The notes below the pieces were generated by a model. That model worked only from the letters and a program-made list of their open reading frames with translations, was not told the DNA's origin and did no database searches. The translations under genes were made by a program, and so were the position numbers. Of a stretch of DNA of 3,460 nt, positions 3,001 to 3,460 are shown piece after piece (within the stretch, counting starts at the first letter, position 1; the number at the start of each line of letters is the position of its first letter). The stretch is from assembly GCF_003334255.1 (NCBI RefSeq), contig NZ_QOWU01000121.1, one strand, 5' to 3'. The stretch comes from Escherichia coli. Its GTDB lineage: Bacteria > Pseudomonadota > Gammaproteobacteria > Enterobacterales > Enterobacteriaceae.

Positions 3001-3460
3001 AGCCGCTACCTCTACGACCCGCTGGGACGGCGAATGGCAAAACGGGTCTGGCGGCGGGAGCGTGACCTGACGGGGTGGATGTCGCTGTCGCGTAAACCGG
3101 AGGTGACGTGGTATGGCTGGGACGGAGACAGGCTGACGACGGTGCAGACTGACACCACACGTATCCAGACGGTATACGAGCCGGGAAGCTTCACGCCGCT
3201 CATCCGGGTCGAGACAGAGAACGGCGAGCGGGAAAAAGCGCAGCGGCGCAGCCTGGCAGAGACGCTCCAGCAGGAAGGGAGTGAGAACGGCCACGGCGTG
3301 GTGTTCCCGGCTGAACTGGTGCGGCTGCTGGACAGGCTGGAGGAAGAAATCCGGGCAGACCGCGTGAGCAGTGAAAGCCGGGCGTGGCTTGCGCAGTGCG
3401 GGCTGACGGTGGAGCAACTGGCCAGACAGGTGGAGCCGGAATACACACCGGCGCGAAAAG
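1..3460 (+). CDS. rhs: Rhs family YD-repeat protein, conserved core region (RhsA/B/C-like); 5' end complete at the ATG at nt 1, 3' end truncated by the window edge
   Basis: Manual translation of frame +1 gives 1153 sense codons with no stop from the ATG at nt 1 to the window end. The N-terminus [42 protein letters not shown] matches what I recall of E. coli Rhs core proteins. Many YD-repeat units are present, for example [13 protein letters not shown] (nt 1084-1122), [13 protein letters not shown] (nt 1282-1320), [14 protein letters not shown] (nt 1723-1764), [14 protein letters not shown] (nt 1909-1950), [14 protein letters not shown] (nt 2230-2271), [16 protein letters not shown] (nt 2833-2880) and [16 protein letters not shown] (nt 3001-3048). 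Codons are GC-rich at third positions. The paralog (rhsA, rhsB or rhsC) cannot be assigned from memory, so the symbol is family-level only. The upstream RBS and promoter are outside the window. Confidence 0.95.

Follow-up and report, generated by a model that had tools for sequence, protein, structure and literature searches.

The DNA analysed here, called the window throughout, is a stretch of 3,460 nt in which frame +1, beginning with an ATG at nt 1, stays open for 1153 codons (to nt 3459) without a stop codon or frameshift. When 5,426 complete E. coli genomes were searched by megablast, strains G1/2, G6/7 and G8 matched all 3460 nt at 100%, and in all of them the matching gene is annotated rhsD (in G1/2, NZ_CP060083.1). 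The rhsD of K-12 is 99.3% identical to the window over its full length, with 23 mismatches, all within nt 249-1448, and five amino-acid differences between the window and K-12 RhsD (K84R, G110A, I112V, M212L, and S483Y); in the last kb of the window, the identity to the intact rhsD of K-12 MG1655 and of many other strains among the best matches listed is 100%. The paralogs rhsA, rhsB, and rhsC are much further away, at about 77.5% identity. At the protein level, the window translation scores 2535.6 bits against the NCBIfam model NF041261 (RHS element core protein, a curated equivalog with a cutoff of 2000 bits), over model positions 1-1156 of 1261. An Rfam scan of the window gave no match, and two long antisense ORFs (2560-3417 and 3012-3446), which have no family matches, are treated as the usual shadow ORFs of a GC-rich coding sequence. 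Because of these identities, the NF041261 and Pfam matches, and the empty Rfam scan and antisense ORFs, the window is the 5' 81% of rhsD and nothing else, with the following features:

1..3460, plus strand: 5' 81% of rhsD (codons 1-1153 and the first base of codon 1154), comprising the N-terminal region and the YD-repeat shell
136..369 (aa 46-123), plus strand: DUF6531, the N-terminal plug region of Rhs proteins (Pfam PF20148, E = 2.8e-18)
958..2700 (aa 320-900), plus strand: main YD/RHS repeat run, which forms the shell (Pfam RHS_repeat matches; TIGR01643, 9.6e-48)
3001..3460 (aa 1001-1153), plus strand: the span flagged originally, with the last YD-type repeats and a non-repeat segment; no core-end motif, GC 0.650, no break
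3016..3030 (aa 1006-1010), plus strand: near-miss DPLGR, which fails the pattern DP.G[LIVM]; an ordinary YD-repeat element
3460, plus strand: the point at which the window cuts rhsD, at the first base of codon 1154

Eight Pfam RHS_repeat matches at E <= 0.001 lie between aa 365 and 678. The non-repeat segment within 3001-3460 is specific to the RhsD/RhsE subgroup, since in the paralog alignment it pairs with rhsE and not with rhsA, rhsB, or rhsC. At the N-terminus, the Pfam PAAR_motif model gives a weak and partial match at aa 3-20 (nt 7-60), limited to model positions 52-69 of 70 and with E = 0.27, and no vgrG, Eag chaperone, or type VI secretion system (T6SS) gene is adjacent to rhsD in the G1/2 and K-12 loci, where its neighbours are ybbP and ybbC. 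With so faint and incomplete a PAAR match and no neighbouring vgrG, the route by which RhsD is delivered is uncertain. In addition, RhsD reads N47-PVNPLLGA at the place of the N-terminal autocleavage motif published for Rhs1, D-PVxxxxGE (PMC8636562), and so has no Asp there. Given the partial PAAR match and this missing Asp, the N-terminal processing and spike mounting in the clade of RhsD may be different from those of the published Rhs proteins.

The 23 nucleotide differences from K-12 rhsD are not spread evenly, as 21 of them bunch in the 436 nt from nt 249 to 684. Over nt 240-700, the window is 97.2% identical to the O157:H7 allele of the same locus vs. 95.4% to K-12, whereas over its whole length it is 99.3% identical to K-12 rhsD vs. 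94.0% to the O157:H7 allele. The clustering of the differences, together with this local closeness to the O157:H7 allele, makes the nt 249-684 patch look like a short gene conversion or recombination. The upstream neighbour ybbP (L002 3305-5570 in the G1/2 locus) is annotated as frameshifted in G1/2 and is intact in K-12.

The core end of RhsD and the compositional break

What lies past the window is deduced from the same gene in G1/2, one of the three 100% matches, and in K-12; these two strains differ by 1 base in the 2.9 kb past the window end. The locus of strain G1/2 (L002) contains the window at 6001-9460, and in the extended numbering used below nt N of the window is nt N+6000 of L002. 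K-12 has the same gene, RhsD (b0497), at the same locus (ybbP … ylbG-mnmH/selU-allS), accompanied there by YbbC (b0498), ylbH, ybbD, and ylbI. In extended numbering, the features beyond the window are:

3461-3774, plus strand: the last 105 core codons
3694-3708 (aa 1232-1236), plus strand: first DPMGL, not the boundary
3745-3774 (aa 1249-1258), plus strand: PLQQIDPMGL, the core end; NF041261 and TIGR03696 both end at aa 1258
3775-4281 (aa 1259-1426), plus strand: DUF4329/Tox-JAB-2 tip (PF14220) and stop codon
4321-4689, plus strand: ybbC, Imm-NTF2-2 family, with a lipobox (…ILFAC)
4713-5399 (L002 10713-11399), directly after ybbC: orphan ylbH
5380-5640 and 5697-5870 (L002 11380-11640 and 11697-11870): putative split ybbD (NF011298)
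6239-6303 (L002 12239-12303): ylbI, with 65 nt that repeat window nt 4-68 at 85% identity

The original prediction held that the window stops before the end of the Rhs core, and this was borne out: the match of the window to NF041261 breaks off at position 1156 of 1261, 105 positions short of the core end, and the full-length RhsD (4281 nt, 1426 aa) scores 2785.4 bits over positions 1-1261 and leaves the model exactly at aa 1258. The predicted distance to the core end, some tens of codons past nt 3460, was too short; the core end does lie beyond the window, at 105 codons (314 nt). It is nevertheless well inside the downstream extension of 1-1.5 kb that had been proposed. Past K1153, RhsD runs AHLYHCDHRGLPLALISEDG…; Pfam places an "RHS protein" block at aa 1155-1190, TIGR03696, the model of the RHS repeat-associated core domain, spans aa 1181-1258 (model positions 1-76), and the core terminates, as expected of an Rhs protein in the original prediction, in a PxxxxDPxGL motif, PLQQIDPMGL. 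The companion statement, that no DPxGL-type motif is found in the last 150 residues of the window translation, can be widened, since a regex scan for P....DP.GL and the looser DP.G[LIVM] found neither in any of the six frames of the whole window; hence, no motif had been overlooked there. This absence alone is uninformative because only about 0.04 chance occurrences are expected in 1153 aa, by a rough estimate for four fixed residues. The DPLGR at aa 1006-1010 was considered as a core end and rejected, as it is part of a YD-repeat element.

The two DPMGL motifs of RhsD (aa 1232-1236 and 1254-1258) have 17 residues between them. In the aspartyl autoprotease of Rhs1, as described by Jurėnas et al. 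(PMC8636562), two DPxGL motifs have the same spacing of 17 residues, and the second of them supplies the catalytic Asp; as judged from its sequence, the double DPMGL of RhsD is this published aspartyl-autoprotease layout.

The GC content remains flat at 0.64-0.65 through nt 3001-3460, so that no break in composition occurs before the window ends. Beyond it, the GC falls from 0.645 in the window to 0.559 in nt 3461-3714, 0.333 in the last 20 core codons, 0.367 in the tip, and 0.306 in ybbC, and the GC3 drops from 0.77 to 0.18. An abrupt GC drop had been predicted directly after the core-end motif: the drop is real (0.65 to about 0.35), but it is misplaced in the prediction, as the maximum-likelihood change point is at nt 3720 (2-lnL support 3679-3723, L002 9679-9723), which puts it after the first DPMGL but before the second, with about 54 nt of core still to come. 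The GC3 of the last 20 core codons is 0.20. With their composition already tip-like, these 20 codons probably travel with the tip cassette.

The loss of similarity between paralogs, which had also been predicted to follow the motif, is indeed found there. When RhsA, RhsB, RhsC, RhsD, RhsE, and the orphan ylbH are aligned as protein or as DNA, conservation extends as far as DP[ML]GL, beyond which only RhsB and RhsD can still be aligned. Among the 5426 complete E. coli genomes, the last kb of the core is found in 3871, in a median of 6 places per genome and with identities of 60-100%, and the 507-nt tip in 1891, in a median of 1 place and at >=99% identity in 1889 of them. Accordingly, of the claim that any strain-specific or novel content would lie just downstream of the window, the polymorphism between strains was found where expected, but the tip is neither novel nor strain-specific, being present in 1891 of the 5426 genomes and having been classified in 2012 (PMC3482391).

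The tip, its immunity gene, and the orphan cassette

The tip of RhsD has 168 aa and is AT-rich. The search of the tip with HMMs of toxin-domain families, suggested along with the original prediction, places it in Pfam DUF4329 (PF14220) with E = 3.2e-37 over model positions 2-114 of 116. In the classification of Zhang et al. (2012), DUF4329 is the Tox-JAB-2 domain, characterised by E, H[ST]H, S, and D residues, and its immunity partner, recorded only from E. coli, is the Imm-NTF2 family 2 (PMC3482391). Exhaustive phmmer found 254 tip homologs, and when trimmed domains were aligned (116 in one alignment and 60 in another), the tip residues E53, H98, H100, and D117 were invariant and S114 was 98% conserved; in RhsD numbering, this metal-hydrolase motif reads E1311, H1356-T1357-H1358, S1372, and D1375. 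A word-indexed protein search with the tip returned close E. coli relatives only, a sequence search of the PDB turned up no solved structure related to either the tip or YbbC with the threshold relaxed to E <= 1, neither of the two is represented among the NCBIfam models, and Foldseek gave nothing significant with the tip, although its weak matches were also rich in MPN domains. The structural model of the tip is predicted with high confidence to adopt a JAB/JAMM fold, and its best structural matches with a known function are peptidases or isopeptidases; at this level of prediction, the family assignment and the predicted fold of the tip are independently confirmed. The RhsD tip thus agrees with the described Tox-JAB-2 and Imm-NTF2-2 system (PMC3482391) in its DUF4329 match, its motif, its predicted JAB-like fold, its RHS context, and its downstream Imm-NTF2-2 gene, without any difference at the level of classification.

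A small immunity gene had been expected to follow the tip, and ybbC takes this place. It begins 40 nt past the rhsD stop codon, with an AAGGAG 7 nt before its ATG, and encodes a protein of 122 aa that matches Pfam PF15631 (Imm-NTF2-2) with E = 6.8e-26 over model positions 1-68 of 68. The N-terminus of YbbC, MKYSSIFSMLSFFILFAC (L002 10321-10374, aa 1-18), fits the lipobox rule, applied here in a form of the PROSITE prokaryotic-lipoprotein pattern. A scan for promoters and terminators in the tip, ybbC, and orphan region stayed at chance level, with 11 sites vs. 10.1 expected and 2 vs. 1.7.

A paralogous pair occurs in the K-12 genome, namely, RhsB and YhhH, which likewise consist of a DUF4329-type tip and a PF15631 immunity protein. 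The two tips are 52% identical, with six cysteines common to both, and the two immunity proteins are 56% identical. In contrast to RhsD, RhsB has a core of the A/B/C subgroup, with an identity of about 77.6% to the window. The export signals differ as well: YhhH (L005 5400-5495, aa 1-32) and three divergent homologs from Salmonella and metagenomes (P0185, P0186, and P0188) have a hydrophobic N-terminal segment ending in …N[GT]WA; the YhhH signal is signal-peptidase-I-like (…NTWA), whereas that of YbbC is a lipobox. K-12 has two paralogous Tox-JAB-2/Imm-NTF2-2 pairs on different core subtypes (L005 1193-5783 vs. L002 9775-10689).

Directly after ybbC, the orphan ylbH is made of an 86-aa core end (NF041261 positions 1176-1261, including PVNGIDPLGL) and a different tip of 142 aa, the sole Pfam similarity of which is a weak SAA-like (serum-amyloid-A) match at E = 0.0012. 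In O157:H7 strain H2495, this same tip is resident on a full-length rhs of 4197 nt (L008 2233-6429) at the same ybbP…ylbG-mnmH-allS locus, which there contains no DUF4329 tip and no ybbC. The O157 allele and the G1/2 orphan have the same sequence from about 100 nt past the window end onward. By comparison of these sequences, the orphan after ybbC is a clean example of the "C-terminal displacement" pattern of Jackson et al. (PMC2935791). A sharp left junction of the incoming tip cassette was looked for in the SNP density between the G1/2 and O157 alleles and was not callable, because their 210 differences in nt 1-3452 form a mosaic that extends over the entire core. Past the orphan tip, one small ORF corresponds to positions 1-85 of the 163-position NCBIfam model NF011298 and a second to positions 108-163; as they match the two halves of this single model, they suggest a frameshifted or disrupted YbbD, a candidate immunity gene of the orphan tip. 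Further on, about 2 kb past the rhsD stop codon, the ylbI copy of the rhs 5' end forms a direct repeat bracketing the whole element.

The exchange of tips raises the question of which tip follows the core in the source genome itself. It could be another one, such as the SAA-like tip resident in O157:H7, given that tips are exchanged between cores at the rhsD locus and the O157:H7 allele carries the other tip, and that the orphan-tip DNA is the commoner of the two, being found in 2852 of the 5426 genomes vs. 1891 with the DUF4329 tip. However, the window and the O157-type core are no more than 94% identical, differing all along their length, whereas the sole 100% matches are annotated rhsD, and both G1/2 and K-12 (99.3%) carry the DUF4329 tip downstream, so we consider a different tip in the source genome very improbable. 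It is scarcely credible that the window belongs to a truncated or pseudogenised rhs core with a frame that ends without DPxGL or a tip, for although Rhs pseudogenes and fragments are common (rhsE, ylbH, ylbI, yibJ, and ybfO are annotated pseudogenes in K-12), the gene is complete in K-12 and in G1/2, where all 4281 nt of rhsD are intact and the motif, the tip, and ybbC are present, the G6/7 and G8 matches fall on an annotated rhsD, the last kb of the window agrees at every base with the intact rhsD genes of the best matches listed, and the window itself is free of stop codons and frameshifts over its 1153 codons. Almost certainly, then, the window is the first 3460 nt of chromosomal rhsD, a clade I Rhs polymorphic toxin, and ends 105 codons before the core end, with the DUF4329/Tox-JAB-2 tip, ybbC, and the orphan cassette beyond it.

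Proposed working of RhsD and activity of its tip

If RhsD works like the Rhs proteins already described (PMC8636562, PMC3150448), its tip would be enclosed by the YD-repeat shell that the window encodes, and the C-terminal plug would cleave the chain after L1258 by means of D1254 of the second DPMGL. After delivery, which in such systems is usually made by a type VI secretion system, the released tip would intoxicate a neighbouring cell, while the binding of YbbC to the tip would protect the producer. As for the orphan, an incoming cassette of core end, tip, and ybbC may have recombined within the conserved core end, and the older tip would thereby have been displaced downstream. When compared with the Rhs toxins already solved, namely, Rhs1/Tre23 of Photorhabdus laumondii (PMC8636562) and RhsA of Pseudomonas protegens (PMC8765631), RhsD shares the YD-repeat shell and the double DPxGL 17 residues apart, and it likewise has a PxxxxDPxGL that starts a variable tip and a downstream immunity gene. 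It differs from them in its weak partial PAAR, in having no adjacent vgrG, Eag, or T6SS genes, and in the absence of the N-terminal cleavage Asp, and also in the tip itself, which is a Tox-JAB-2 in RhsD vs. an ADP-ribosyltransferase in the solved Rhs toxins.

We infer that the tip is a Zn-dependent JAMM-type hydrolase; where it acts is a more divided matter. Immunity proteins are normally located in the compartment where their toxin acts, and the immunity proteins of both the YbbC and YhhH types carry export signals, which suggests that the tip acts in the periplasm of the target cell rather than in its cytoplasm; we give this about the same weight as the nuclease reading. A cytoplasm-acting nuclease or RNase, as opposed to a periplasm-acting peptidase, has an even chance in our estimate. 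It was proposed for Tox-JAB-2 by Zhang et al. by analogy with RadC (PMC3482391), and passages in several papers, citing Ma et al. 2017, label DUF4329/Tox-JAB-2 as an RNase or nuclease, which would place the target in the cytoplasm, against the periplasmic location suggested by the export signals. Against this label, however, stand the lipoprotein-type signal of YbbC and the signal-peptide-like N-terminus of every YhhH-type homolog examined, the peptidases and isopeptidases among the best structural matches of the tip with a known function, and the six cysteines conserved between the RhsD and RhsB tips; moreover, according to a preprint of 2024 neither the activity nor the substrate is yet known, and one of 2025 gives DUF4329 tips as having an unknown function. 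The export signals, the six shared cysteines, and the peptidase-dominated structural neighbours keep a periplasm-acting JAMM hydrolase as a live alternative. The most specific form of it, in which the RhsD and RhsB tips would be periplasm-acting JAMM metallopeptidases and not RNases, cutting, for example, a peptide or isopeptide bond of the cell envelope, we advance only tentatively and regard as rather unlikely.

In summary, the window is part of a textbook gene, and everything found downstream of it is already catalogued; the original prediction was correct, but for a known system, so that the chief value of the analysis is as a negative on novelty. The numbers added to this known picture are the position of the core end 105 codons past the window, the double-DPMGL signature, the compositional break 54 nt before the end of the motif, and the residence of the orphan tip in O157:H7. 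The only point of possible wider interest is that exported immunity proteins, such as YbbC and YhhH appear to be, fit poorly with the "RNase" label given to DUF4329/Tox-JAB-2 tips.
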